IMG/VR virus record: IMGVR_UViG_3300029319_000010
Coordinates: 32,001 to 96,000 of that record
DNA from: a virus
Strand: one strand, 5' to 3'
DNA: 64,000 nt
Shown: positions 21,646-62,361 of the stretch, in pieces
Layout: the number at the start of each line of letters is the position of its first letter
Numbering within the stretch: position 1 is the stretch's first letter
Translations under genes and position numbers: made by a program
The notes under the pieces: model-generated
Told to the model about the DNA's origin: nothing
Database searches by the model: none
The model's input: only the letters and a program-made list of their open reading frames with translations

Positions 21646-21997
21646 AACTTAATATTTTATAATCTAATAAGATTGTTTCTTCTGTTTGTATATTCATAAT
21701 AGGATTTATCTTTATAATCTTCTTATTCTTACCTTCTTTTACTATTAAGTTTTTCTTTTCTGCTTTTGATAAAGCATTTCTACATGATTGTGAACTTTTA
21801 AAAATACCACTGCTAGATATATGCTCACAAAATTTAGTTAATTCAATAGAATCAAGTTTAGATAACTCTAATAAACAATTAAGATCTGACAAACTTATTT
21901 GTATATTATTTAAAAAGCAATAAGTAAGGATCTGATATTTTATTACCATATCCTTACTCATTCTTACTTTCTTGTCAACTTTATTAACTATAGCCAT
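21626..21997 (-). CDS. Winged-helix DNA-binding protein
   Basis: SQSCRNALSKAEKKNLIVK followed by a wing-like hairpin. Confidence 0.5.
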   Translation of the reverse strand: MAIVNKVDKKVRMSKDMVIKYQILTYCFLNNIQISLSDLNCLLELSKLDSIELTKFCEHISSSGIFKSSQSCRNALSKAEKKNLIVKEGKNKKIIKINPIMNIQTEETILLDYKILSFESQEE

Positions 21998-22605
21998 GAA
22001 GTAACAATATCTTTACTATCTAGTAATGTATATGTAAAATTATTATTCCATGTATCTCTAGCTTTTCTACATATTTTCATAAATAATCTCCAATCATCAT
22101 TAGAAGCTATCACTTGACAACCTGCTGACCATTTATCTACTTGACTAGATTTTTTACCAGCATATTTAGTTGCTCTATGAATGTTAATACCAAAAAGCCC
22201 TGTTTGCGTATTATTATCATCTAGATCATAATTATTATCCCTATTATTATCTCTATAGACTGTCATAGGGTTTTGCTGACCAAGAGCTTCATATCTACCT
22301 TGATGTTTTCTAATCTTATGACTATGCCTATATTGACCTGGTTTTAGTACAGCAACTCCTTCTTTTCTCATTATGTTCTCAACCCAATGAGTACCTGGAT
22401 CTGTTGTACAATCAAATGTATGAAATTTCCATATGCCATTTTCTTTGTAAGACAAAGTCATTAAATCATCAAATCTATTTGTAACTTTAAAACCTGTTGA
22501 AGAGTTTCTGATCCCAATTACGTTAAGATTATATTCACCTCTTGTGAAGTACTTATATTCTTTTTGTTTCATAGTCTCTTCTATTTGTTCTCTAGTATAT
22601 TTCAT
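21988..22605 (-). CDS. Putative lysin of the L,D-transpeptidase (YkuD-like) fold
   Basis: GINIH-x16-SAGCQV matches the YkuD His...S-x-G-C catalytic signature; close to a 2-TM holin-like gene. Confidence 0.6.
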   Translation of the reverse strand: MKYTREQIEETMKQKEYKYFTRGEYNLNVIGIRNSSTGFKVTNRFDDLMTLSYKENGIWKFHTFDCTTDPGTHWVENIMRKEGVAVLKPGQYRHSHKIRKHQGRYEALGQQNPMTVYRDNNRDNNYDLDDNNTQTGLFGINIHRATKYAGKKSSQVDKWSAGCQVIASNDDWRLFMKICRKARDTWNNNFTYTLLDSKDIVTSWL

Positions 22606-23045: not shown

Positions 23046-23261
23046 TTATTTTCCTTTAATTTTTTCAAATGAACTTATACCAAAGCTACCTAATGTAACA
23101 ATAACAAATGAGTTATATATAACTTCGTTTATAACTAGTTCCATACCACACCATCCTGTAATTAGATCACATATAGCAAATATTACCATTAAAATAAATG
23201 ATGCAAAGCCAACTATAGCTTTTTCATTTATATCATTTTCATCTTTAAATAATTTCCACAT
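23046..23261 (-). CDS. Putative holin (2 TM)
   Basis: Two hydrophobic segments and a basic C-terminus. Confidence 0.5.
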   Translation of the reverse strand: MWKLFKDENDINEKAIVGFASFILMVIFAICDLITGWCGMELVINEVIYNSFVIVTLGSFGISSFEKIKGK

Positions 23262-24606: not shown

Positions 24607-24987
24607 TTAAAAAGTTTTACGTTTACCACCGTCATACTCCACGGCATAACCTTCTTTTACAAGACAATCATTTACACAAACTTTAGTTATTGTGTCTTTG
24701 CCTGCTATTTTATCTATATGTAATCTACCAAGAACTCTACCATATTTACCCAGCTCTTGTGATTCTAACTCAAAACAATTAGCCGCACCATCTAACATAT
24801 CTGTTAGCCTTTCTTTTGCAGCCAAACCTAATTTCTTTTCAACTTTATTTCTTGTTCTAGATTCTGGTGCATTAATACCAGCAAGTCTAATCCTTTTTTT
24901 AACGTGTACACCAAACCCTAGATCTATCATTGCATCTATTGTATCACCATCAACTACCTTTACACACTTTGCATTATAGTTATACAT
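24607..24987 (-). CDS. Thermonuclease (SNase family)
   Basis: VVDGDTI, IRLAGINAPE, GKYGRVLG, LVKEGYA; start at MYNY (24987). Confidence 0.9.
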   Translation of the reverse strand: MYNYNAKCVKVVDGDTIDAMIDLGFGVHVKKRIRLAGINAPESRTRNKVEKKLGLAAKERLTDMLDGAANCFELESQELGKYGRVLGRLHIDKIAGKDTITKVCVNDCLVKEGYAVEYDGGKRKTF

Positions 24988-25291
24988 TATTAAATATTTT
25001 ATTCTTAATCTTGAGCAACTCTGCACATTTTTCATATTCTTCTAGATCTTCATAATAATATATTGTATCATTATAAACATCTTCATCTGGCTCATCACTT
25101 GGATTATATATCATAATTGCTTTTAAACCATACTTATCATTTACATCTAAAAGATCCTCAAATGAAGCTTTTTTTGTTAAAACCATATACGAGTTTTCAA
25201 ATGCTTGTTCTACAATATAGTTTTCATATTCTATTTTTTCTTCAAGACTCATCTTTTCAGATGATTCTTCATTGAAAGGATCTTTTGACAT
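24980..25291 (-). CDS. Acidic protein with C-terminal UVR-like helix
   Basis: EEYEKCAELL motif. Confidence 0.5.
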   Translation of the reverse strand: MSKDPFNEESSEKMSLEEKIEYENYIVEQAFENSYMVLTKKASFEDLLDVNDKYGLKAIMIYNPSDEPDEDVYNDTIYYYEDLEEYEKCAELLKIKNKIFNNV

Positions 25292-31210: not shown

Positions 31211-31408
31211 ATGAGAAAAAAAATTTTTAATATGAGTAAACATTTATTAGTATTACTTATAATGTTAACAGCACTTAGTTGCGGATCATACGGTATGTTT
31301 TATACACTATTTCATGGATGGGTATACATAATATTATTTATAATTAGTGGTGCATCATTTGCACTTAGTATGTTTATACTATATACACTTTCTAATCAAT
31401 CAAAATAA
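31211..31408 (+). CDS. Small membrane protein
   Basis: Two hydrophobic segments. Confidence 0.5.
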   Translation: MRKKIFNMSKHLLVLLIMLTALSCGSYGMFYTLFHGWVYIILFIISGASFALSMFILYTLSNQSK

Positions 31409-47644: not shown

Positions 47645-48355
47645 ATGAATGTAAAAGAAATACAAGAAAAATTTATGAATAAGCTCTCAGATGCTGCTGA
47701 GAGTCCATATGAAAGCTGGGTAGATGCACTTTGGAATACAGTAAATTCTAAAGCATTCTCTGATCCACTATTAGAATTAGCTAAAGAAGTTGATAATGGT
47801 AAGAAGTTTACACCAAAATTTCCTGATTTACTTAAAGCATATGAGATGTGTCCATATAGAGATCTTAAAGTTGTTATTGTTGGACAAGATCCATACCCTC
47901 AAGAAGGAGTTGCTGACGGAATAGCATTTAGTTGTTCAAAGACTAACAAGGAACAACCATCATTAAGGTACATCTTTGATGAATTACAAAGACAGTATCC
48001 AGATGCAACCAGAGACTGTGATCTAAGTAGATGGTCTAAGCAAGGCGTGCTTATGTTAAACACAGCACTTACATGTGAAGTAGATAACATTGGGGCTCAT
48101 GTTAATATATGGAAGCATTGGAGTCAATGTATATTTGGACATATTTTAACTGATCATCCAAAGATACTTGAGTTTGTATTTATGGGTGCTAAAGCAAAAC
48201 CATTTGCAAAATCTATTTCTAATGATCATAATAAACATTTTGTTGCACATCCTGCAGCTGCTGCATACCGTGGTGGTAAATGGGATTCAGACAATCTATT
48301 TAAAAAAATAAATGAAAACTTAATTAATAATGGTGAAGAACCAATAAATTGGTAA
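47645..48355 (+). CDS. ung: Uracil-DNA glycosylase (family 1)
   Basis: VVIVGQDPY, ADGIAFS, QGVLMLN, HPAA. Confidence 0.9.
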   Translation: MNVKEIQEKFMNKLSDAAESPYESWVDALWNTVNSKAFSDPLLELAKEVDNGKKFTPKFPDLLKAYEMCPYRDLKVVIVGQDPYPQEGVADGIAFSCSKTNKEQPSLRYIFDELQRQYPDATRDCDLSRWSKQGVLMLNTALTCEVDNIGAHVNIWKHWSQCIFGHILTDHPKILEFVFMGAKAKPFAKSISNDHNKHFVAHPAAAAYRGGKWDSDNLFKKINENLINNGEEPINW

Positions 48356-48582
48356 CTATGAGTTCAAGAAGTAAATGGAAATTATATTATTTTGCATTAT
48401 TTTTATGGTATTTATTTTTAGCTTCTCTTGTTGGTTGCGAAAAGCAACTTGAAGAACAGATATGTTGTGATTGGGATGCTACAAATTTTGATCCTGAATA
48501 TAATGGTCATAATGTAAATCAACTATACTTTACAAACAGTTCATTATGTAATGATGATGTTTGTATCTATGAAAACTATTAA
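48349..48582 (+). CDS. Putative small lipoprotein/membrane protein
   Basis: Hydrophobic stretch ending in the lipobox-like LVGC; carries one degenerate C-D-x-x-A-x-N-F-D-P unit. Confidence 0.45.
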   Translation: MVTMSSRSKWKLYYFALFLWYLFLASLVGCEKQLEEQICCDWDATNFDPEYNGHNVNQLYFTNSSLCNDDVCIYENY

Positions 48583-52420: not shown

Positions 52421-52555
52421 TTATCTACCTTGACCTCTATACTTTTTAGTATAATTGCTACCTCCCTTATTGAATGTAGTTCTACTCTTAGCATGTCTAC
52501 CATGAGATTTTCTACTATTAGGCATAAATGTAAATGTATTTTTCTTTGTCGCCAT
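52421..52555 (-). CDS. Small basic protein, 44 aa, ending KKYRGQGR; absent from the ORF track
   Basis: MATKKNTFTFMPNSRKSHGRHAKSRTTFNKGGSNYTKKYRGQGR; TAATG overlap with the upstream gene. Confidence 0.7.
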   Translation of the reverse strand: MATKKNTFTFMPNSRKSHGRHAKSRTTFNKGGSNYTKKYRGQGR

Positions 52556-52935
52556 TATACTCTTGTAAAGAATGCATATACTACATTTGTAACTGCAGTA
52601 TCATACTTTAATTTTGCACCTGTTCCATCTTCAACTACAAAAAATGCAAAATCACCAACTCCTAATTTAGTTAAGTTAGTGCTTCCACCATCATTAGTAA
52701 CAAGTATATTACCAGTTCCAGTACCACCACCATTAGTTCCTGTATTATGAACAAATAAATATGTATCACCTTGACTTGTAGGAATAATTGATTGATTTAA
52801 AGCAGCATATGTCGTTATACCAGCTGAAGTTACTGTGCTTTCTTGTACAGTAATAACAGGGTTTAAGGTTATAGACACAGGATCACTTTGACCAGTTATA
52901 GTACCTGTAAGATTAAATAAAGTTTGTAAATTCAT
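52555..52935 (-). CDS. Small beta-rich putative virion protein (paralog 1 of 3)
   Basis: TYLFVHNTG...KLGVGDFAF...VVYAFF. Confidence 0.6.
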   Translation of the reverse strand: MNLQTLFNLTGTITGQSDPVSITLNPVITVQESTVTSAGITTYAALNQSIIPTSQGDTYLFVHNTGTNGGGTGTGNILVTNDGGSTNLTKLGVGDFAFFVVEDGTGAKLKYDTAVTNVVYAFFTRV

Positions 52936-52958: not shown

Positions 52959-53363
52959 TTAATGTCTTTTTAGATAAGCATAAACATATGTAGTAACTGA
53001 GTTATCATATACAGCCTTTAAACCTGCTTGTGCTATCAAAGGTATAAACATTGCATCACCAACATTTAAATGTGCTATGTTTGTTCCAGCACCGTTTGTA
53101 AGTATAACTTTACCTCCAGTACTAAGATCTCCGTTTGCACCAACATTTCTAACATACACATACTGTGTAGAACCTCCAGCTGCAGGTGCAGCAGATGTTC
53201 CTAGTATTTCAAAAGGTGTACCATTTACGGTATTTCTTGATGCAGATGTTAGAGAAGGATTTTCAACGTCTAATTCAAAGTCAGTAAAATTAATACCTAC
53301 TGAATCACTTTGACCTGTTAAACTTCCGTTTAAACTTAAACTAAATTTTACTTTATCAGCCAT
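52959..53363 (-). CDS. Small beta-rich putative virion protein (paralog 2 of 3)
   Basis: QYVYVRNVG...HLNVGDAMF...YVYAYL; shares TGQSD with paralog 1. Confidence 0.6.
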   Translation of the reverse strand: MADKVKFSLSLNGSLTGQSDSVGINFTDFELDVENPSLTSASRNTVNGTPFEILGTSAAPAAGGSTQYVYVRNVGANGDLSTGGKVILTNGAGTNIAHLNVGDAMFIPLIAQAGLKAVYDNSVTTYVYAYLKRH

Positions 53364-53381: not shown

Positions 53382-53783
53382 TTATTGTTTCTTCTTATTA
53401 AATTTTTCAACAGATCTACCACCAAAATAGGCACCAATCACTGTTATTAATACTAACTGTAGAAGATCAGTCCACTTTTCTTCTACGGTAAATGTTAATG
53501 CACCAGCATCAATAAAGATCAATAACATAGTACATACTATTAAAAATATAAGAACCATAGGTCTTACATTTTTACTTAACCAACTATCAGAATTCATATC
53601 TGCCGTCCAACGGTCAGTTATATTTTTTTCCATTTGAGCTTCATGATTCATGATTAGCTCTTTTAGTTTTCTTTTAGCGTCTAGTTTTTCTTCATCTGTT
53701 GTTACTAAGTTATCTATCACACCACCAACTGATTCTACCAAGTTGCTTCCGGCACCTGAGAAAATCTTTTTTAGTATACTCAT
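53382..53783 (-). CDS. Holin, 3TM (GTA-type) family
   Basis: IDNLVTTDEEK...RWTADMNSDSWLSKNVRP...GAYFGGRSVEK. Confidence 0.8.
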   Translation of the reverse strand: MSILKKIFSGAGSNLVESVGGVIDNLVTTDEEKLDAKRKLKELIMNHEAQMEKNITDRWTADMNSDSWLSKNVRPMVLIFLIVCTMLLIFIDAGALTFTVEEKWTDLLQLVLITVIGAYFGGRSVEKFNKKKQ

Positions 53784-54674: not shown

Positions 54675-55043
54675 TTATACTTTTTTAAATTTAGCGTAAT
54701 TAACTACACATGCAGCAGTGTCAGAAATTAATTCTAATCCTTCTCCACCGTCACAACATAAAAACATGAAGCTACCTGGAAAGAGTTTAGCATATGTATT
54801 ATTTGCCACGTCTTGAACAGTTACAAAATTGGCAAGATCTGTATTTTGAATGAATATATAAGTATCAGCAGCAGTAGTTGGAATAATCTCTGTAGCAGAT
54901 GTTGGTATTGACATAGATTTTGATTCTACGTCAGTATTATCAAAATTTACAGTGTCTAAAACTGTGCTATTTAAACTAAATATACCACTAACTGTGTCAG
55001 CAGTATTAAGGTTTAATGAGAGATTAAGTGCTTGTGTTGCCAT
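54675..55043 (-). CDS. Small beta-rich putative virion protein (paralog 3 of 3)
   Basis: TYIFIQNTD...KLFPGSFMF...VNYAKF. Confidence 0.6.
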   Translation of the reverse strand: MATQALNLSLNLNTADTVSGIFSLNSTVLDTVNFDNTDVESKSMSIPTSATEIIPTTAADTYIFIQNTDLANFVTVQDVANNTYAKLFPGSFMFLCCDGGEGLELISDTAACVVNYAKFKKV

Positions 55044-55225
55044 TATATTTCAAATCCAAAGTTAAATATCATAAATCTAAATCTTTTACAATTTGGCTGT
55101 TTGTTTTCACAAAACCAGCATGGGCAAAAGTATAGTTCTAATAATGTTAATTTACCAAGTCTAAGGTTTAATTCATAAACCTCTTTCTTATTTCCTGATT
55201 TCCAGGAATTAATCCAATTTATCAT
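55043..55225 (-). CDS. Hypothetical small protein
   Basis: 60-aa ORF downstream of the late motif at 55251-55261. Confidence 0.55.
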   Translation of the reverse strand: MINWINSWKSGNKKEVYELNLRLGKLTLLELYFCPCWFCENKQPNCKRFRFMIFNFGFEI

Positions 55226-55275: not shown

Positions 55276-56349
55276 TTAAAGTATGATATAGTTTATTCCA
55301 AACTTGAAATCATGCCAGTCACGGTTCCAGTATTTGTTATATTTTCCTTCAATAAAGATACCTAGGTTCTTATTGATCTTATAACCAAATATTAAACCAC
55401 CTGAATAATCTATCCAATTGCCACCATTAAAATTATGATATGAGTACTCACCCCCTGTATCCAAATGCACCGGTAGTAGGTTCGCCCAAGAATGAAACCA
55501 TATTGTTTTAGTGTAGTGATAGTAGTCTAAACCAACTACTAGAGAATGACACCACTGAACAGGTAATGCATCCTTTTTTGATTTCACATAATCATTAAGA
55601 ACTTGGGGGACCACTACCTCTTCCCATACTTCACTACTTGTAGCCACGACTGCTCCACTAGGGTCTAAGTAGCTTATTCCTGTTGGGTCAAACCCAATTG
55701 TGTAGCCTTCCTCTAAAGCAAGGTTTGTGTAGTGTATGTTTCCATTAGATAGTACCCACTCAGCTAAAGGGTCATAACCGTAAGGTTCTGATATTCTTTG
55801 TACAGCTCCTGCAGTAACTGAAAGTTTTCTACCTATCTTTTGTCTATATCGTTGTGACGCTTCCATGTATTCTACATCAGCAAAGCCGTCTTGTAAGTAC
55901 TCTATCTTAACCACCCATCTATCTGCTAAGTATCGTAAAAAGTGATGTTGGTCTACATAAGAGTTACCTTGTTGTCTTTTATAATCTGCCTCAAACAAAA
56001 ACTCAAATCCTCTAGTTCGTCCAATAGTAGCGGCATCAGAGTAAGAAGTTTCTGTACCATCTTTGAATGTATTAGCTTTATTCTCGTATCCAAATCTTTG
56101 TATCTTTCTTACACCTACAGTAAAAGCATAGTCAAATGGAGTTTCTATTACATCGGTTTGAAGTCCATCTAATATAGAATATGTATTCTGATCTGAAATA
56201 GAGGTACCACCATTTACTGCAGCGTAGAATGTAGAGAACTTAAAAGTTTTCTTAAGTTCTGTTTTAAACTTGCTATCCTGAGCACAACACTTTTTAGGTG
56301 CTACACAAGACAATAATAGTAATAATATGGTTAGTAGTATTTTTTTCAC
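55276..56349 (-). CDS. Putative outer-membrane beta-barrel protein with signal peptide
   Basis: MKK + hydrophobic signal; amphipathic aromatic-rich strands; C-terminal FKFGINYIIL beta-signal-like strand. Confidence 0.65.
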   Translation of the reverse strand: MKKILLTILLLLLSCVAPKKCCAQDSKFKTELKKTFKFSTFYAAVNGGTSISDQNTYSILDGLQTDVIETPFDYAFTVGVRKIQRFGYENKANTFKDGTETSYSDAATIGRTRGFEFLFEADYKRQQGNSYVDQHHFLRYLADRWVVKIEYLQDGFADVEYMEASQRYRQKIGRKLSVTAGAVQRISEPYGYDPLAEWVLSNGNIHYTNLALEEGYTIGFDPTGISYLDPSGAVVATSSEVWEEVVVPQVLNDYVKSKKDALPVQWCHSLVVGLDYYHYTKTIWFHSWANLLPVHLDTGGEYSYHNFNGGNWIDYSGGLIFGYKINKNLGIFIEGKYNKYWNRDWHDFKFGINYIIL

Positions 56350-59300
56350 AACTTAATTATTTTCTTGGTTATTCTTATTTTATCATATGTAATAATCAAA
56401 TTATACATTCCATCGGGATAATCTGATAAATCTATTCTTTTAATATTATCTGTTTGTATAATCTCTCCTACCATATTATATAGTTCTACATCAACATCTA
56501 GTCTTGTTTCTATAGTAAATGTATTTGCTGTAGGATTGGGGTATACAATTATATCACTACCTGATAGCTCATCTAAGTTAACTGGCCATCCTTCTTCACA
56601 ATAATTATACATAGATTGACAGGTCTCATCCCATACCTCAGTACAACAATAGTTATCTATATCTATAACCCAAGCATAACAAGGATCATTTAACCAATAA
56701 GGTTCTCCAGGTCCACCATAGCAACCAGCATCATAAAGACAAGTGGTATTATCTGGTAAGTTAACTAACGGATCATAGTTATATGCATTAGGATCAGCAC
56801 ATCCTTCTATTATAACTACACAACTACCATCATCAAAACAAGCATCTTCATCATAGTTTAGTGCAGTACTATCTGTACAACCTCCAACATAACAACATGA
56901 ATTATCTAAAGTATTTGCTAACGGATCAAAGTTAAGAGCCATTGTGTCTGTACAACCATATACAAATTCTATACACGTACCATTATCTGTATTTGCTAAT
57001 GGGTCATAGTTAAATGCAGTAGAATCCATGCAACCATATACATAAGGTATACAGTTACCGCTATCAGTATTTGCAGTAGAATCATAATTAAACATGGTAG
57101 AATCCATACATCCTATAATAACACCTTCACAGCTTCCATCATCTGTATTGGCATCTGCATTATAGTTAAAAGCCTCTGGATTGGTGCAACCTAGTATAGG
57201 GTATATACATCCATTATTAGTATTTGCTAACTCATTATAATTTAACGCAGTTGAATCTGTACAACCAATCACAACATCAATACATGAGCCGTTGTTTGTA
57301 TTTGCTGTGGCATTAAAATTAAATGCACTTGGATCTGTGCATCCATATATAGCATATATACACCCTGAATTAGTATTAGCGGTAATTTGATAATTTAAAG
57401 CTGTATCATCAGTGCATCCTATTACTACTGGTTGACATGAATCATCATCAATATTAGCATTTACATTAAAGTTAAATGCTGTTGGGTCAGTACATCCTAG
57501 AACAGGATATACACAACCTGAGTTAGTATTAGCTAGTTGATCATAGTTTAGTGCTGTATCATCTGTACACCCTATAACAACATCAACACAACTATTGTCA
57601 GTAGTATTAGCTTGTGGATTATAGTTAAATGAATCAGGATTTGTACAACCATAAACAAATGAAATACATCCTACATTTGTGTTAGCAGTTTCATCATAAT
57701 TATATGCTTCAGGATCCGTACATCCATATGCAAACTCTATACATGATCCATCATCAGTGTTTGCATTAACATTAAAATTAAACATTGTAGGATCCATACA
57801 ACCATATACAAATGGCTCACATGGATTATTTTCATCTGCTGTATTAGCTTCTGCATTATAATTAAATGCTGTTTCATCTAAACAACCGTATATAAATGGT
57901 TCACATAAATTATTATTTGTGTTAACATCTACACCATTTATTCCTGTTAATGGATTTCCTACTCCATCATTATCATAATCATTATATGTATAAGAGTTTG
58001 GATTTAAACAACCATATACAAAAGGATAACATGAGCCATCATCGGTATTAGCTAGCTCATTATAGTTAAATTGATTTGACTGTGTACAACCTTCAACAAC
58101 TGGTTCACAACTATCATCATCTACATTTGCATCTGGATAGTAATTAAATGCTTCATCATCTGTACAGCCATACACTATTTCTATGCAAGAGTCATTATCT
58201 GTATTAGCGTCTTCATCATAGTTAAACGCAGCAGAGTCTGTACAACCATTAATAACAGGCTGACATGATCCTGGTTCTAGAGTATTTGCTTCTTGATCAT
58301 AATTAAATGCTAATGGGTCTGTACAACCTAATATAGTTGGTATACAAGGATCTGTTTCATCTTCAACAGCTACTTGATTAACTGTTGCTAGTTCATTATA
58401 GTTATATGCAGTTTCATCTATACAGCCGAATATAGCATATACTTCACATGTTCCATCATCAAAATCTGCTTCTATTGCATTTTGTTCTATATAATTATAA
58501 TATTCAATATAAGCTGCATCAGTACAACCAGGGTTGTAATAACAGTCATTACTGCTTGTATTTGCTATTGGATCAAAGTTAACTGCTTCTAAATCTAAAC
58601 AACCATAAATTTTAGGAATACAGTTATTACCACACAGAGCTTGACCTTGATATAGAAAGTTGTATTGATTATAAGAAAGTATTGGATTTGTATAAGGGTT
58701 AGTTCCACCTTCTAATATAATGTCTCCTATAGGGTTAATTATTTCAAAGCTGCATTGTTCTGTTGTTTGTTGAGATTGACCAAAAGAATAAAAATAAGCT
58801 TTAACCATTTCACTGGTATTAAAATTAATTTCAGTTTCAAAAACTGTTTGATCACTTTGTAATGTAAAAGGCCCCCACCACTGATCACCTTGTGTAACTA
58901 CTAAAAATGAACCTGCCCAACCATTATCAGCCCAATCCGTCAATCTTAATGTATTTGTACAATTAGGGTTTGATAGTTGTGTATTTGCATCAGGGTTAAA
59001 ATTAAAAGCATCAGGGTTTATACAGCCAAATATTCTTTCTGTTTCACATGATCCGTCATCTTCATTAGCATAAGGGTTAAACTCTAAATACTCATTGTTT
59101 GTACATCCTTGTACAGTCTCTGGTGCACATGGTGTTACTTGACCAACATCAATTATAAGCTCTCCAAAATCACCTATACCTTCTGATATTGTATCACCAC
59201 ATTCTGTATATACCGCCCAAGTACCATCTATACCACCCCATTGAGCTCCACCAAGACCATCTCCATATGAGTCTTGTAACCAAAACATTATGTTAGTATT

Positions 59301-60512
59301 GTCATCAATGCAAGTTTGATATTCTACTGTAGTACCTACTGGCACACCACAATACGTTGTGTTATCATTTACTTCTGCTAAAGGTGTTCCATCACCATAC
59401 TGATCATATATTATCCAACTAGTTTCACAGCCATACTGATCCACCATTATTTCAACTGTAACTAAAGTTTTACCTGCTGTGCATGTTATATCTCCTCCAT
59501 TACATGAACCATCGTCTGTAGTTGCTGCAGGGTTATAACTAGCTGCTTCTGGGTCTGTACAACCTGGTATGTTAATACAAGATCCATCATCAATACCTGC
59601 TTCTTCATTATAGTTTAATGCATTTGGGTCTGTACATCCATAAATAAAAATACAAGGATCTACCTGCCATGTTTCTCCTACTACAGCATTTACATTTACA
59701 CCTGGAGTATTTGTATTAGGGTTTCCATCTGCTTCTGCTTGTGTTGATACTACATAGATTAATGTTGTGGGTGAATTACAACCTCCACCATCAAAAGCTA
59801 CAGCATCTATAAACCATTGTTGTCCATTATCACCAACATATATTCTTGCACCAATTTGTAGAATATCTTGATATTGTAAATAAAATTCGGGATCAACTCC
59901 AAAGTGAGTATTAGTAAAGGATACCAAGTTACATGTTGAACCTGGTGTTATAATGCCTGTTGGTATATCTGCTGCAAGTGGATTATAATTAAATGCAAAC
60001 TCATTTATACATCCATAAATATATGTACAACTACCATCATTAATTAAGGCATCTTCGTTAAAGTTTTCTGCTAATTCATCTGTACAACCTTGTAAAGGAG
60101 GAGCACAAGGTGCTATAGTTAATGTATCTACTAAAGATATTGGTCCGCTAGGTTCTGTTGTTAGTACTGAATCTTCATAAAAAGCACCTTCTACATACAT
60201 TAAACTATCTTGACAAGCATTACTTATTGAAAACCATCCATTATTACCACCCCAAAAAGATCCAGCTAAACCATCACCATAAGCATCATTTAATGAAATA
60301 ATATATTCACCTGCTGGTATACTTATTATAGTATCATGTAAAAATTCTGGCAATAAAAATGGTTCATTTACAGCTATTGCAGCACCGCTAATATCATAAA
60401 GTTCCCATGATGTTTCACCAGGATATTGGTCTGTTTGTAACTGTATATGTATCCAAGATTCTTGAGTAAATACTAGTATAGGAACTAGTAATAAGAATAT
60501 TAGTTTTTTCAT
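56346..60512 (-). CDS. GCTD-repeat protein with Sec signal and T9SS type-A C-terminal sorting domain
   Basis: Signal MKKLIFLLLVPILVFT|Q; about 29 GC[TM][DN]xxAxNYxxxANTDDGSC units; C-terminal IIVYPNP...LYNMVG...IDLSDYPDGMY...TKKIIKL. Confidence 0.85.
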   Translation of the reverse strand: MKKLIFLLLVPILVFTQESWIHIQLQTDQYPGETSWELYDISGAAIAVNEPFLLPEFLHDTIISIPAGEYIISLNDAYGDGLAGSFWGGNNGWFSISNACQDSLMYVEGAFYEDSVLTTEPSGPISLVDTLTIAPCAPPLQGCTDELAENFNEDALINDGSCTYIYGCINEFAFNYNPLAADIPTGIITPGSTCNLVSFTNTHFGVDPEFYLQYQDILQIGARIYVGDNGQQWFIDAVAFDGGGCNSPTTLIYVVSTQAEADGNPNTNTPGVNVNAVVGETWQVDPCIFIYGCTDPNALNYNEEAGIDDGSCINIPGCTDPEAASYNPAATTDDGSCNGGDITCTAGKTLVTVEIMVDQYGCETSWIIYDQYGDGTPLAEVNDNTTYCGVPVGTTVEYQTCIDDNTNIMFWLQDSYGDGLGGAQWGGIDGTWAVYTECGDTISEGIGDFGELIIDVGQVTPCAPETVQGCTNNEYLEFNPYANEDDGSCETERIFGCINPDAFNFNPDANTQLSNPNCTNTLRLTDWADNGWAGSFLVVTQGDQWWGPFTLQSDQTVFETEINFNTSEMVKAYFYSFGQSQQTTEQCSFEIINPIGDIILEGGTNPYTNPILSYNQYNFLYQGQALCGNNCIPKIYGCLDLEAVNFDPIANTSSNDCYYNPGCTDAAYIEYYNYIEQNAIEADFDDGTCEVYAIFGCIDETAYNYNELATVNQVAVEDETDPCIPTILGCTDPLAFNYDQEANTLEPGSCQPVINGCTDSAAFNYDEDANTDNDSCIEIVYGCTDDEAFNYYPDANVDDDSCEPVVEGCTQSNQFNYNELANTDDGSCYPFVYGCLNPNSYTYNDYDNDGVGNPLTGINGVDVNTNNNLCEPFIYGCLDETAFNYNAEANTADENNPCEPFVYGCMDPTMFNFNVNANTDDGSCIEFAYGCTDPEAYNYDETANTNVGCISFVYGCTNPDSFNYNPQANTTDNSCVDVVIGCTDDTALNYDQLANTNSGCVYPVLGCTDPTAFNFNVNANIDDDSCQPVVIGCTDDTALNYQITANTNSGCIYAIYGCTDPSAFNFNATANTNNGSCIDVVIGCTDSTALNYNELANTNNGCIYPILGCTNPEAFNYNADANTDDGSCEGVIIGCMDSTMFNYDSTANTDSGNCIPYVYGCMDSTAFNYDPLANTDNGTCIEFVYGCTDTMALNFDPLANTLDNSCCYVGGCTDSTALNYDEDACFDDGSCVVIIEGCADPNAYNYDPLVNLPDNTTCLYDAGCYGGPGEPYWLNDPCYAWVIDIDNYCCTEVWDETCQSMYNYCEEGWPVNLDELSGSDIIVYPNPTANTFTIETRLDVDVELYNMVGEIIQTDNIKRIDLSDYPDGMYNLIITYDKIRITKKIIKL
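56735..58610 (-). repeat. Tandem array of ~25-28-aa Cys-containing (GCTD) protein repeats
   Basis: About 23 consecutive units in the translation, plus three isolated pairs nearer the N-terminus. Confidence 0.85.
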
Positions 60513-60515
60513 ATT

Positions 60516-60839
60516 TTAAAATTTATTAGCAAGTATTTCGTCAATATATGCTTGCACTTCTTTTGCATCTGCTTTCATAGTAAATGATATATCTGCTTGA
60601 TATCTTTTTACTTCTTCACCATCATCAAATATTATAATTGTAGGAACTACTGCTATATTATGTTTTTCTTGTTGTTTTGGTTTGTCTGCTATATCTACAT
60701 ATGCTATATCACAATCAACTAAATCATTACACCATTCTACATCATTTGTAGAGTTCCATCCTGCATTATATTGAACAACTTCTACCTGTCCATAGGCAAT
60801 AGAAGACATCAAACAAAATATAAAGAATATATTTTTCAT
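60516..60839 (-). CDS. Exported thioredoxin-fold protein lacking canonical CXXC
   Basis: Signal ending AYG|Q; YNAGWN in place of FxAxWC; VDI...NIAVVPTIIIFDDGEEVKR. Confidence 0.7.
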   Translation of the reverse strand: MKNIFFIFCLMSSIAYGQVEVVQYNAGWNSTNDVEWCNDLVDCDIAYVDIADKPKQQEKHNIAVVPTIIIFDDGEEVKRYQADISFTMKADAKEVQAYIDEILANKF

Positions 60840-61117
60840 TTTAATCTATCTATTTTATCTTCTATACGTTTTAAATCTTCTTTTATTTCCTCAACATCAT
60901 CTTGAGTATTTTGAATTGTTAAACGTATATTTTTATCTTTCATATCAAACTCCATTCTTGTTACATCTGGATTTGGTGGTACAGGTAGCTCTTTAGCCTC
61001 AGCAATATCTGCCTGTAAAACAAACCACATACTTACTAAAGTAGTAATTAAAAAACCTATTCCACCTAGTGTCTTTAGGCTTATTTCAAATTTGGAATCT
61101 TCTGATATTTCTTTCAT
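60836..61117 (-). CDS. Single-TM protein with C-terminal coiled coil
   Basis: Hydrophobic GIGFLITTLVSMWFVL; heptad VEEIKEDLKRIEDKIDRL. Confidence 0.6.
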   Translation of the reverse strand: MKEISEDSKFEISLKTLGGIGFLITTLVSMWFVLQADIAEAKELPVPPNPDVTRMEFDMKDKNIRLTIQNTQDDVEEIKEDLKRIEDKIDRLK

Positions 61118-61525: not shown

Positions 61526-61909
61526 CTATGAAGTTGTATCCCAGTCAATTACAATTGATCCACAAACTACTCCAAGATTAGTTGCATTAGGAGCAATTTC
61601 AAGAAATCTTGCATTTGCTGGATTAGTAATTTCAGTTGTACCTGCTCTAGCTAAAAATTCTGTAATTGCTCTTTGCAATTTTAATGCTTCACCAGTTGTT
61701 GTTATTGATGCTTTACAATCTTTTCTAGTATGTCCTAACCAAGTACCACTATGACCAGCATCTAGAAAAAAGATTTCAAGAGTATTTGCATCTGCTATTC
61801 TCATATTAACATTATTTCCTGATCCAACTGGATAGGATATAATATCTTCTGTGTCATCAGCATATGTCATAATCCATTTTGGTAATGCTGCTAAATTTAA
61901 TTCTGCCAT
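61526..61909 (-). CDS. Hypothetical late protein (paralog of 61936)
   Basis: MAELNxAxLPKW, LDAGH, RAGTTEITN. Confidence 0.65.
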   Translation of the reverse strand: MAELNLAALPKWIMTYADDTEDIISYPVGSGNNVNMRIADANTLEIFFLDAGHSGTWLGHTRKDCKASITTTGEALKLQRAITEFLARAGTTEITNPANARFLEIAPNATNLGVVCGSIVIDWDTTS

Positions 61910-61935: not shown

Positions 61936-62361
61936 TTATGCTATTATATCTTCTACTACCTCTAAGTCAGTAACAGTTGCTCCTAAAAAAGTATTTACAT
62001 CACTTAAAACATCTCCATCAAGATATATCATTCTGTTATTATCTGTATTAGTAATTTCTGTAGATCCTGCTCTAGCTACCCACCTTGTAAAATTTCTTAC
62101 TATATTAAGTCTAGTAGCATCGTCATCAGCATGTGTAAATACAATTGCCATATCACGTCTTGCACCAACAACACCTTCACTATCATGACCTGCATCCAAT
62201 ATACACACTAATGTTTTAGTTGGTGCACCTCCTGTTCCAGTATTACAAGATTTAAAAAATACTCTTGCACCCAAACCAATAGGTACTGATACACTTTTAT
62301 TTTCTCCTGTGTCTTTAGCCATAACCCACTTGGGTAGTATTGCTTTGTTTAATTCTGCCAT
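61936..62361 (-). CDS. Hypothetical late protein (paralog of 61526)
   Basis: MAELNxAxLPKW, LDAGH, RAGSTEITN. Confidence 0.65.
   Translation of the reverse strand: MAELNKAILPKWVMAKDTGENKSVSVPIGLGARVFFKSCNTGTGGAPTKTLVCILDAGHDSEGVVGARRDMAIVFTHADDDATRLNIVRNFTRWVARAGSTEITNTDNNRMIYLDGDVLSDVNTFLGATVTDLEVVEDIIA

Follow-up and report, generated by a model that had tools for sequence, protein, structure and literature searches.

A candidate late envelope cassette in marine phages of Flavobacteriales: a host-tagged giant fibre, a predicted outer-membrane barrel and two small companions

Why would a phage of flavobacteria encode a secreted protein of 1388 residues that ends in a sorting signal of its host, and why would it keep this gene beside those of a predicted outer-membrane barrel, an exported thioredoxin-fold protein and a small inner-membrane protein? 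The question is raised by four genes at positions 55276-61117 of a 64,000-nucleotide stretch of the IMG/VR virus record IMGVR_UViG_3300029319_000010, referred to here as the window. An earlier note on this DNA had read them as an operon for cargo of the host's type IX secretion system (T9SS), used by the phage to display a long stalk. The analysis reported here points to a phage-only late module that appears to be widespread in uncultured marine phages of Flavobacteriales, and in which a fibre assembled largely from host-type parts is inherited together with three proteins and a cysteine-rich module that are nearly exclusive to phages.

The four genes are inherited together

The cassette comprises four genes, listed here from the upstream end.

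TM93: 60836-61117, minus strand; 93 aa, bitopic inner-membrane coiled-coil protein
TRX107: 60516-60839, minus strand; 107 aa, exported thioredoxin-fold protein
GIANT: 56346-60512, minus strand; 1388 aa, acidic Cys-rich modular fibre
B357: 55276-56349, minus strand; 357 aa, GTG start, predicted outer-membrane barrel

TM93 and TRX107 overlap by 4 bp, TRX107 and GIANT are separated by a 3-bp gap, and GIANT and B357 again overlap by 4 bp, so that the four abutting or overlapping open reading frames (ORFs) stand exactly as first described. Signal peptides were read by eye directly from the translations. Leaders of Sec type precede TRX107 (AYG↓Q), GIANT (VFT↓Q) and B357 (CCA↓Q), the last of which also contains a lipobox-like LLSC. 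The Gln at +1 is retained among orthologues, with Q18 conserved at 90% or more in the TRX107 family alignment (A6); translations and conservation alike uphold the three signal peptides of the earlier note, and its appeal to the Bacteroidota Q-rule, by which Gln follows the signal peptide, agrees with the published description (PMC5837995).

A search with B357 found 98 viral contigs, of which 80 were kept as related loci. By tblastn, B357 is present in all 80, GIANT in 72, TRX107 in 64 and TM93 in about 64 (63-64). Wherever a cassette member is missing, the contig ends on the side where that member is expected, and all four genes are present in 59 of the 59 viral loci that have enough flank. 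Gene order varies (TM-TRX-GIANT-B357, B357-TM-TRX-GIANT and GIANT-B357-TM-TRX) at constant strand, and TM93 lies directly upstream of the TRX gene in almost every locus. One 245,646-bp IMG/VR contig (L017 and L019) carries the cassette twice, at a distance of about 119 kb, and is probably a head-to-tail dimer assembly of a genome of about 120 kb.

The window itself covers bases 32001-96000 of a 114,213-bp virus record with a CheckV estimate of 98%. PHROGs matches in this genome include a major head protein, portal, large terminase, DNA polymerase and helicase, confirming together with the viral record that the DNA is that of a phage. The only relatives of the head protein among cultured or named phages are in crAss-like phages of Bacteroidota and in Cellulophaga phages, and the record is that of a crAss-like phage, marine and uncultured, whose hosts are probably flavobacteria. 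A stretch of at least 72 bases close to the beginning of the record (bases 29-100) reappears with one mismatch at its very end (last 100 bases), which suggests a terminal repeat or a circular assembly, though the record is classed as linear.

Carriage of the cassette extends beyond this lineage. Two records are T4-like phages, with Gp23 matches at E 1e-73 and 6e-65, and two nearly complete cassette records of 65-71 kb have neither a Gp23 head protein nor the head protein of the window's phage (loci L022 and L073, records G402 and G403, are taken from this spread). The cassette must accordingly have passed from one phage lineage to another, unrelated one, and B357 is still 57-64% identical in the T4-like and 65-71-kb records. 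Its identity stays at 55-89% even between phages without a head protein in common that could be detected. Ocean metagenomes contain 3637 homologues of B357, and there are 333 clusters at 50% identity; the barrel thus ranks with the best-conserved modules of marine Bacteroidota phages that are still uncharacterised.

A fibre with a hypervariable distal part

GIANT contains 79 Cys, and 210 Asp and Glu against 16 Lys and Arg. Its signal peptide (residues 1-16) consists of MKK, a hydrophobic run and VFT↓Q, a layout repeated in the orthologues, which number 71 ORFs of 621-1465 aa in the viral loci. The following parts are recognised along the mature protein.

Tip β-sandwich domain (D.Y..ETSW ... 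D.YGDG): 60093-60461, minus strand; GIANT residues 18-140
Second copy of the tip domain: 59118-59465, minus strand; GIANT residues ~350-465
Array of two-Cys units: 56733-60098, minus strand; GIANT residues 139-1260, ~30 units with β domains between them
Cys module: 56577-56732, minus strand; GIANT residues 1261-1312, G.P-Y-W-L-N-D.C-Y.W-V-I..D.Y-C-C...W-D..C...Y..C
T9SS type A C-terminal domain (CTD): 56352-56546, minus strand; GIANT residues 1323-1387 of 1388

Two D.Y..ETSW ... D.YGDG domains are clear, with motifs at residues 28-82 and 358-420; of the two to three copies counted earlier, a third is not among the clear ones. The AlphaFold2 model of the tip domain (pLDDT 89, pTM 0.82) has eight strands, and its best fold matches (VIA Z 6.0, Foldseek E 0.03) are PLAT/C2/CBM60-like sandwiches, none of them a clear relative. 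A search of PDB sequences returned no match, and the ESM Atlas yielded only viral hypothetical clusters. Because the fold matches are those of a generic β-sandwich, no function can be read from the fold.

Making up the bulk of the fibre are units of about 26 residues with two cysteines each (G-C-T-D..A.N-Y-N..A-N-T-D-D-G-S-C). About 31 matches to the motif, 23 of them canonical (alignment A8), agree with the roughly 29 GCTD repeats that the earlier note had counted in this acidic protein. Tandem Repeats Finder detected a single weak 78-bp repeat in the DNA of the array; this DNA being nearly free of repeats, the copies of the protein unit are old and not recent DNA duplications. Over its core of 22 residues (GCTD..A.NYN..ANTDDGSC) the unit matches mammalian MPEG1/perforin-2 at residues 332-353 (chain 6u23, E 7.9e-7), so that a solved structure of one two-Cys unit exists. 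Weak tblastn matches lead to a 'virion structural protein' of Synechococcus phage S-CAM3.

Located between the array and the sorting tag is the Cys module, the CxxxVxxxDxYCCxxxWDxxC element of the earlier note, found at residues 1261-1312. It has 15 invariant columns and a mean column identity of 75% across 46 orthologues (alignment A9), has no match among PDB sequences, and is kept regardless of which C-terminal tag comes after it. The body of the fibre belongs to no Pfam, NCBIfam or PHROG family.

The closest relative of the locus (L002) is 97-99% identical in the flanking genes and in the trio of TM93, TRX107 and B357, and its fibre has 994 aa against 1388 aa here. The two fibres share 36% identity over the first 940 residues of GIANT and 72% over the last 380. 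The distal fibre is a hypervariable island on a constant phage backbone.

Orthologous fibres carry one of two host tags

TIGR04183 matches the C-terminal 65 residues over model positions 1-71 of 72, at 48.4 bits (E 6.9e-13; cut-off 23), and PF18962 matches them at 44.3 bits (cut-off 27); both models thereby confirm the type A CTD recognised by eye. It is the sole type A CTD in the phage genome.

We scanned 74 C-termini, namely that of the window's GIANT and those of 73 ORFs from the loci. A type A CTD terminates 33 of them and a short tail 38, the remaining 3 being second repeat proteins that lack the Cys module; all 71 orthologues with the Cys module finish in either a type A CTD or the short, host-type tail. 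The short tail comprises about 40 residues, K.LI.ITD[LI]LGR......N..LFYIYDDGTVEKK (fibre C-termini L028-L080, alignment A4), and is recognised by no Pfam or NCBIfam model. A profile of it matches 83 of 201 Flavobacteriales genomes, nearly all of them small genomes of 0.8-2.3 Mb, and the matches in a single genome reach at least 34. The host ORFs concerned have signal peptides and unrelated passengers (leucine-rich repeats, an esterase, a cupredoxin-like domain), and the tail is always at the extreme C-terminus (L096-L107). Five small Flavobacteriales genomes that share the building blocks of the fibre, the short tail among them, all encode SprA (TIGR04189, >1000 bits) and, at other loci, 47-73 type A CTDs. 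The short tail looks like an undescribed surface-sorting tag of the host. As a candidate truncated type A CTD it gave a sensible-looking hhalign alignment at a probability of only 7%, and homology is not claimed.

That orthologous fibres carry either of two host tags is good indirect evidence that their C-terminus really works as a host sorting signal. The short tag could improve prediction of the secretome of these Flavobacteriales, and the type of tag on a fibre could help to predict the host of a phage.

B357 is a predicted outer-membrane barrel

Conserved in the alignment of B357 (A2) are the signal peptide and a C-terminal β-signal, G.NY.I[FL]. AlphaFold2 models the protein (pLDDT 77, pTM 0.70) with 12 long strands and a helix before the first strand. 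All of its top structural matches are outer-membrane barrels: by VIA Z-score EstA (11.7), KdgM (11.1), Tsx (10.7), AaaA (10.3), NalP (10.2) and AIDA-I (10.1), and by Foldseek NanC (E 1.2e-5). Chains of FadL type score below these 12-strand barrels, at Z 7.2-7.7. B357 is accordingly predicted to be a 12-strand outer-membrane β-barrel, a prediction from the barrel modelled alone that bears out the earlier assignment of the 357-aa protein.

EstA (3kvn), NalP (1uyo), KdgM/NanC (4pr7 and 2wjr) and Tsx (1tlw) are like B357 in fold and strand number (Z 10-11.7 over ~165-195 residues) but unlike it in sequence, with 6-12% identity. B357 also differs from them in that no family hidden Markov model (HMM) matches it and in having its own insert of about 75 residues and a conserved loop of 30 residues (83-113, of low confidence in the model). 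The insert (residues ~188-264) probably faces outward, judging from the strand order of the model and from known barrels. Neither B357 (Pfam, NCBIfam, PHROG) nor 35 of its relatives (Pfam, NCBIfam) could be assigned to a family, and a profile search gave no PDB sequence match. Distant relatives (P0130, P0131, P0149, P0153 and P0161; A2 columns ~320-345) have an insert with D.N.(D/N)G..D stretches; these look like calcium-binding loops and are absent from the B357 of the window.

TM93 and the redox-dead TRX107

By inspection, TM93 has its N-terminus inside and crosses the membrane with a single helix; a linker rich in Pro then leads to a coiled coil in the periplasm, about 55 residues long. Its median identity across loci is 67%, with 24 invariant columns (alignment A11), and it matches no Pfam, NCBIfam or PHROG family.

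The family profile of TRX107 (A6) matches 163 thioredoxin-type chains in the PDB at E <= 0.1, the best being 2vim (E 6.8e-10); as a single sequence the protein reaches 22.6 bits with PF00085, just below the cut-off of 23.5. TRX107 has the fold and the cis-Pro loop in common with thioredoxin (PF00085, 2vim), the cis-Pro (P66-T67) being conserved. It differs in being exported to the periplasm and in the active site, where W-N-x-x-N takes the place of CGPC; N29 and N32 do not vary in 30 sequences, and the alignment with 2vim has a gap at CGPC. Owing to this replacement of CxxC by WNxxN, redox chemistry is lost and TRX107 is not a disulfide oxidoreductase in the usual sense, and is probably a periplasmic binding or adaptor protein. 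The exported thioredoxin-fold protein of the earlier note therefore stands, and the periplasmic folding helper does not.

Phage-only and host-type parts

The distribution of each part was followed by profile searches of Flavobacteriales genomes, 101, 201 or 401 per part. B357 was found in 2 of 401 genomes, in one on a phage-type contig and in the other (G060) on short contigs left unread; TM93 in 3 of 201, of which the two readable ones have it on phage-like contigs; and the Cys module in 1 of 201, on a phage contig of a metagenome-assembled genome (MAG). The contigs that were read (G001 C32, G157 C58 and G071 C76) are phage-like. The tip β-sandwich, for comparison, occurs in 53 of 101 genomes and the two-Cys unit in 46 of 101, in dozens to hundreds of units and in ORFs of up to ~7000 aa.

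A close-pattern scan of species genomes for B357 found none. The corresponding scan for the Cys module, over 185,579 species genomes, led to phage-type contigs in four cases; a fifth, weak match (L086) lies in a Saprospiraceae bin and is not accompanied by any of the phage genes. The four MAG contigs belong to Flavobacteriales, Parvibaculum, Nitrosopelagicus and Rickettsiales bins and all have the same phage genes; Parvibaculum, Candidatus Nitrosopelagicus and Rickettsiales (L083, L084, L085) being implausible as hosts, these contigs look like binning contaminants. One of these three is a 120-kb contig, which is about the size of a whole genome.

These surveys show the barrel, TM93 and the Cys module to be nearly exclusive to phage contigs, and mark the tip domain, the repeats and the tag as building blocks of the host. 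The fibre is thus a phage copy of the host's giant surface proteins, to which a phage-only module has been added just before the sorting tag.

The cassette lies beside lysis genes

Two further genes of the window bear on the role of the cassette.

Holin: 53382-53783, minus strand; phrog_3427 E 1e-32, PF11351 GTA_holin_3TM 25.6 bits (cut-off 24.8)
Endolysin-like gene: 21988-22605, minus strand; phrog_33083 'endolysin' E 8.2e-15, phrog_3000 E 5e-36

The holin gene is in the same leftward gene run as the cassette, 1.5 kb downstream of B357, and in 47 of the 80 loci a holin gene lies just downstream of the cassette. The four genes do form an operon among phage genes, as the earlier note had it, but one that is part of a longer late operon reaching the holin, a link to lysis that the note had missed. 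A scan for promoters (sigma-70) and terminators stayed at background (77 against 63.7±7.7 promoters, 3 against 3.3 terminators).

The endolysin-like gene, for which no Pfam family was found, is 31 kb from the cassette here and adjoins the holin or the Trx gene in six other loci (L022, L029, L032, L051, L054 and L055). Near it on the minus strand are genes for a transmembrane protein of 71 aa (23046-23261) and a nuclease of the SNase family (24607-25035, PF00565), both of which other phages have next to the cassette; with these and the endolysin-like gene lying 31 kb off, the lysis-linked genes of this phage appear to be split into two places. On a phage-like contig of 9.4 kb the order is a TM93 homologue, a TRX107 homologue (again with WNxxN), a Peptidase_M15_3 gene and a holin gene.

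Because the cassette adjoins holin and endolysin genes in its relatives, it is no less likely to act in lysis than in surface display; and because it moves between unrelated phages yet stays beside these genes, it behaves like a module for lysis or for the host envelope. Annotation of the lysis genes is poor in this phage group: in a Pfam sweep of 59 proteins of the window no endolysin family appeared at E <= 1e-4, nothing in the window matched a spanin family, and nothing in the phage was otherwise recognisable as a spanin, though no search was aimed at spanins. By inspection TM93 has an i-spanin-like layout with a periplasmic part of only ~55 residues, and it matches no spanin family. The gene that comes after it, here and in the orthologues, encodes a signal-peptidase-I substrate (G↓Q, no lipobox) and not the lipoprotein expected of an o-spanin.

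What the cassette may do

The structural reading, in which a Sec-exported trio extends from the inner to the outer membrane and the fibre is addressed to the surface by a host tag, is well supported. The explanation that we favour goes further, to a phage-only late envelope cassette that remodels the outer face of the infected cell at lysis, and taken whole we give it an even chance.

According to this explanation, the cassette genes would be transcribed late and jointly with the holin gene. Their products would be exported by Sec and cleaved by signal peptidase I, leaving Gln at +1, and the barrel would be inserted by the host's β-barrel assembly machinery (BAM). The fibre would fold and become oxidised in the periplasm and then cross the host T9SS by means of its CTD. 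With the CTD removed, the fibre might be kept on the cell by docking of the phage-only Cys module on the phage barrel, which TM93 and TRX107 might in turn tie to the inner membrane; in this way the cassette would give the infected cell a rebuilt outer face just when lysis occurs. Passage through the T9SS, the docking, the trans-envelope link and the purpose are what we infer, and export by the T9SS with retention on the barrel through the Cys module is the most economical arrangement because it explains the phage exclusivity, the conservation and the co-inheritance of both.

As to purpose, a part in the outer-membrane or surface-coat step of lysis, or in its timing, is a serious candidate that we put somewhat short of an even chance. 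Masking of the dying cell and its debris against adsorption, as exclusion or as protection of the progeny, is plausible to a slightly lesser degree, and the remaining weight falls on adhesion or something else. Purposes of lysis and of recognition thus receive roughly equal weight. The roles offered in the earlier note (superinfection exclusion, grazer avoidance, aggregation of cells, jamming of the T9SS or of gliding) are at this stage guesses. A more specific form of the proposal, which we advance tentatively, is that the barrel, the redox-dead thioredoxin and TM93 make up an undescribed periplasm-spanning machine of three parts, employed instead of spanins by phages of marine flavobacteria from several unrelated lineages, which opens, or times the opening of, the outer membrane and the giant-repeat coat, with the T9SS-delivered, host-mimicking fibre as its strain-specific outward part.

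Several observations weigh against the favoured explanation. The evidence points two ways, the hypervariable fibre fitting recognition over lysis and the linkage to holin and endolysin genes fitting lysis over display. Half of the orthologues end in the short tag, for which the hhalign probability given above does not support a common origin with the type A CTD. Loops 50-113 of B357 are modelled with low confidence; among the fold matches listed for it no T9SS barrel (PorV/FadL-like, PorQ, PorT or PorG) stands out, and it has no NCBIfam match. Tried as a PorP/SprF protein, B357 gave no match to PF11751, and hhalign of A2 against five PorP/SprF proteins reached a probability of 3.3%; the outer-membrane partner that the earlier note had assigned to the cargo is retained as a predicted barrel and given up as a T9SS partner of PorP/SprF type. 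Among cultured phages (50,697 phage records), megablast found no match for the region and tblastn none for B357.

Could the trio instead be a barrel-based analogue of spanins that breaks the outer membrane after the endolysin has acted, with the fibre merely sharing its operon or anchor? In most loci, and in lineages that are not related, the cassette has a holin gene and/or an endolysin-like gene beside it, the TM93-TRX pair directly precedes a Peptidase_M15_3 endolysin and holin on one contig, and TM93 has the i-spanin order of N-terminal transmembrane helix and periplasmic coiled coil. The trio is also highly conserved and nearly exclusive to phages, as expected for a core step of the cycle, in a phage in which no recognisable spanin turned up (spanins not having been the aim of a search). 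However, the neighbour of TM93 is a soluble signal-peptidase-I substrate and no o-spanin-type lipoprotein, the periplasmic part of TM93 is short, there is no homology to any Rz or spanin family, and a BAM-inserted barrel would be without known precedent in membrane disruption. The fibre and its Cys module accompany the trio in 59 of 59 loci, which is unexpected of an unrelated accessory. Exported 'moron' genes, moreover, often adjoin lysis genes merely for late expression, as do lambda bor and stx. We regard this alternative as possible and rather doubtful.

Equally doubtful is a second alternative, surface display pure and simple, in which a variable fibre would serve exclusion, progeny protection, adhesion or grazer avoidance and the lysis neighbourhood would reflect shared late expression. 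It accounts well for the fibre: the type A CTD is genuine, all orthologues have host-type tags, the fibre is built of modules of host surface proteins, and its conserved, membrane-proximal Cys module would suit an anchor. The extreme variability of the distal part on a constant backbone resembles an arms race and matches the T9SS cargo of 'Cryophage' (PMC7468147). Display leaves no role, however, for an inner-membrane coiled-coil protein or a redox-dead thioredoxin, it would leave little time to act on a living cell so late in the lytic cycle, and the TM93-TRX pair can sit within a bare endolysin-holin cassette.

Quite improbable, in our judgement, is a trans-envelope sensor of lysis timing, in which the fibre would sense the outside and signal through the barrel, TRX107 and TM93 to the holin. 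The components, encoded beside a holin gene, do make a series that leads inward from the cell surface as far as the inner membrane, with a variable outer part and constant inner parts. Lysis inhibition in T4 runs through periplasmic RI to the holin T; the proposal is pure analogy to it, since nothing in the cassette is homologous to RI, RIII or T, nothing points to a contact between TM93 and the holin, and twelve-strand barrels are not known as signal transducers.

We think it very unlikely that B357 is the fibre's own export and anchor pore, arranged like a split autotransporter and independent of the T9SS, with the tag confined to quality control or anchoring. The autotransporter translocators EstA, AaaA, NalP and AIDA-I (Z 11.7, 10.3, 10.2 and 10.1) are among the best matches of B357, the model begins its barrel strands only after a helix, and the gene adjoins that of the presumed passenger. 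The porins KdgM, NanC and Tsx match equally well, though, which indicates strand number and not kinship; a folded, disulfide-rich protein of 1388 aa cannot pass a 12-strand pore, and a full type A CTD speaks for export by the T9SS.

Last, and barely credible, is the idea of a chimera made in assembly or of an insert recently acquired from the host (an ordinary moron): the tip domain, repeats and tag of the fibre are of host type and its G+C content is not distinct from that of its surroundings, but the synteny survey found the same four genes amid phage genes in ~80 independent viral contigs, the barrel, TM93 and the Cys module are absent from host genomes save for a few mostly phage-like contigs, and 4-bp overlaps join the cassette to its phage neighbours, all in keeping with the earlier note's view that this is no chimeric insert.

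Relation to known systems

Use of the T9SS by a phage, which the earlier note had inferred, is not itself a new idea. 'Cryophage' encodes T9SS type A cargo genes that vary between near-identical variants (Bellas et al. 2020, PMC7468147), and crAss-BACON ORFs have T9SS sorting domains (de Jonge et al. 2019, PMC6949934); a study of Porphyromonas gingivalis phages mentions proteins with Q-rule signal peptides and not the T9SS (PMC10367356). The present cassette is like those of 'Cryophage' and crAss-BACON in that a Bacteroidota phage protein bears a type A sorting domain and hijacking of the T9SS is inferred only. Their cargos are enzymes, PA14 or BACON proteins for which no companion genes are described, whereas the cassette has a host-mimicking Cys-repeat fibre, a phage-only Cys module, a barrel, TM93, a dead thioredoxin and lysis genes beside it. 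In the literature that we searched, neither the cassette of four genes nor the barrel family nor the short tag is described.

Three other systems invite comparison. In Flavobacterium johnsoniae, SprB is a cargo with a type B CTD whose gene lies beside that of SprF, a PorP/SprF-like barrel thought to hold the cargo on the surface. The cassette is similar in that the cargo gene adjoins a gene for an outer-membrane barrel of ~300-350 aa; its CTD is of type A and not type B, and its barrel lacks a PF11751 match and is nearly exclusive to phages.

The lambda spanins Rz/Rz1 resemble the trio in pairing an N-terminal transmembrane helix and periplasmic coiled coil with an outer-membrane protein, in being encoded with holin and endolysin, and in occurring only in phages. 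The trio differs in that it shows no homology to them and has no small o-spanin lipoprotein, and in having a 12-strand barrel, a Trx-fold protein in between and a secreted fibre.

Lambda Lom and Bor and T5 Llp are phage proteins of the host outer membrane that are linked to exclusion or receptor masking. Like the cassette they are phage-encoded outer-membrane products, some of them beside lysis genes; unlike it they are single small proteins, mostly of temperate phages, whereas the cassette is a conserved four-part set of apparently lytic phages of several lineages.

New here are the phage-only trio and Cys module, the swapping of tags, the hypervariability of the fibre, the spread to T4-like phages and the adjacency to holin and endolysin genes. 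Should the trio act in lysis, it would amount to a novel way of dealing with the outer membrane. Display of the fibre would make this the first defined example of T9SS use by phages that supply their own anchor, and the variable tips would then be the sign of an arms race fought on the surface of Flavobacteriales that are abundant and streamlined.

Other genes around the cassette

A small Cys-containing ORF is a frequent companion of the cassette.

s60: 55043-55225, minus strand; small Cys-containing ORF

It has tblastn matches in 41 of the 80 loci, beside B357 or upstream of the fibre or TM93 gene, and no family was found for it.

Flanking the cassette and the holin gene is what seems to be one set of small paralogues (54675-55043, 52959-53363 and 52555-52935, minus strand), and a second apparent set (61936-62361 and 61526-61909, minus strand) belongs to the same late gene run. 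Within each set the N- and C-terminal motifs look shared, and no family was found for either.

Two small ORFs on the plus strand (31211-31408 and 48349-48582) lie among replication genes and have leaders of lipoprotein type (LSC and LVGC); by their sequence they might be o-spanin-like.

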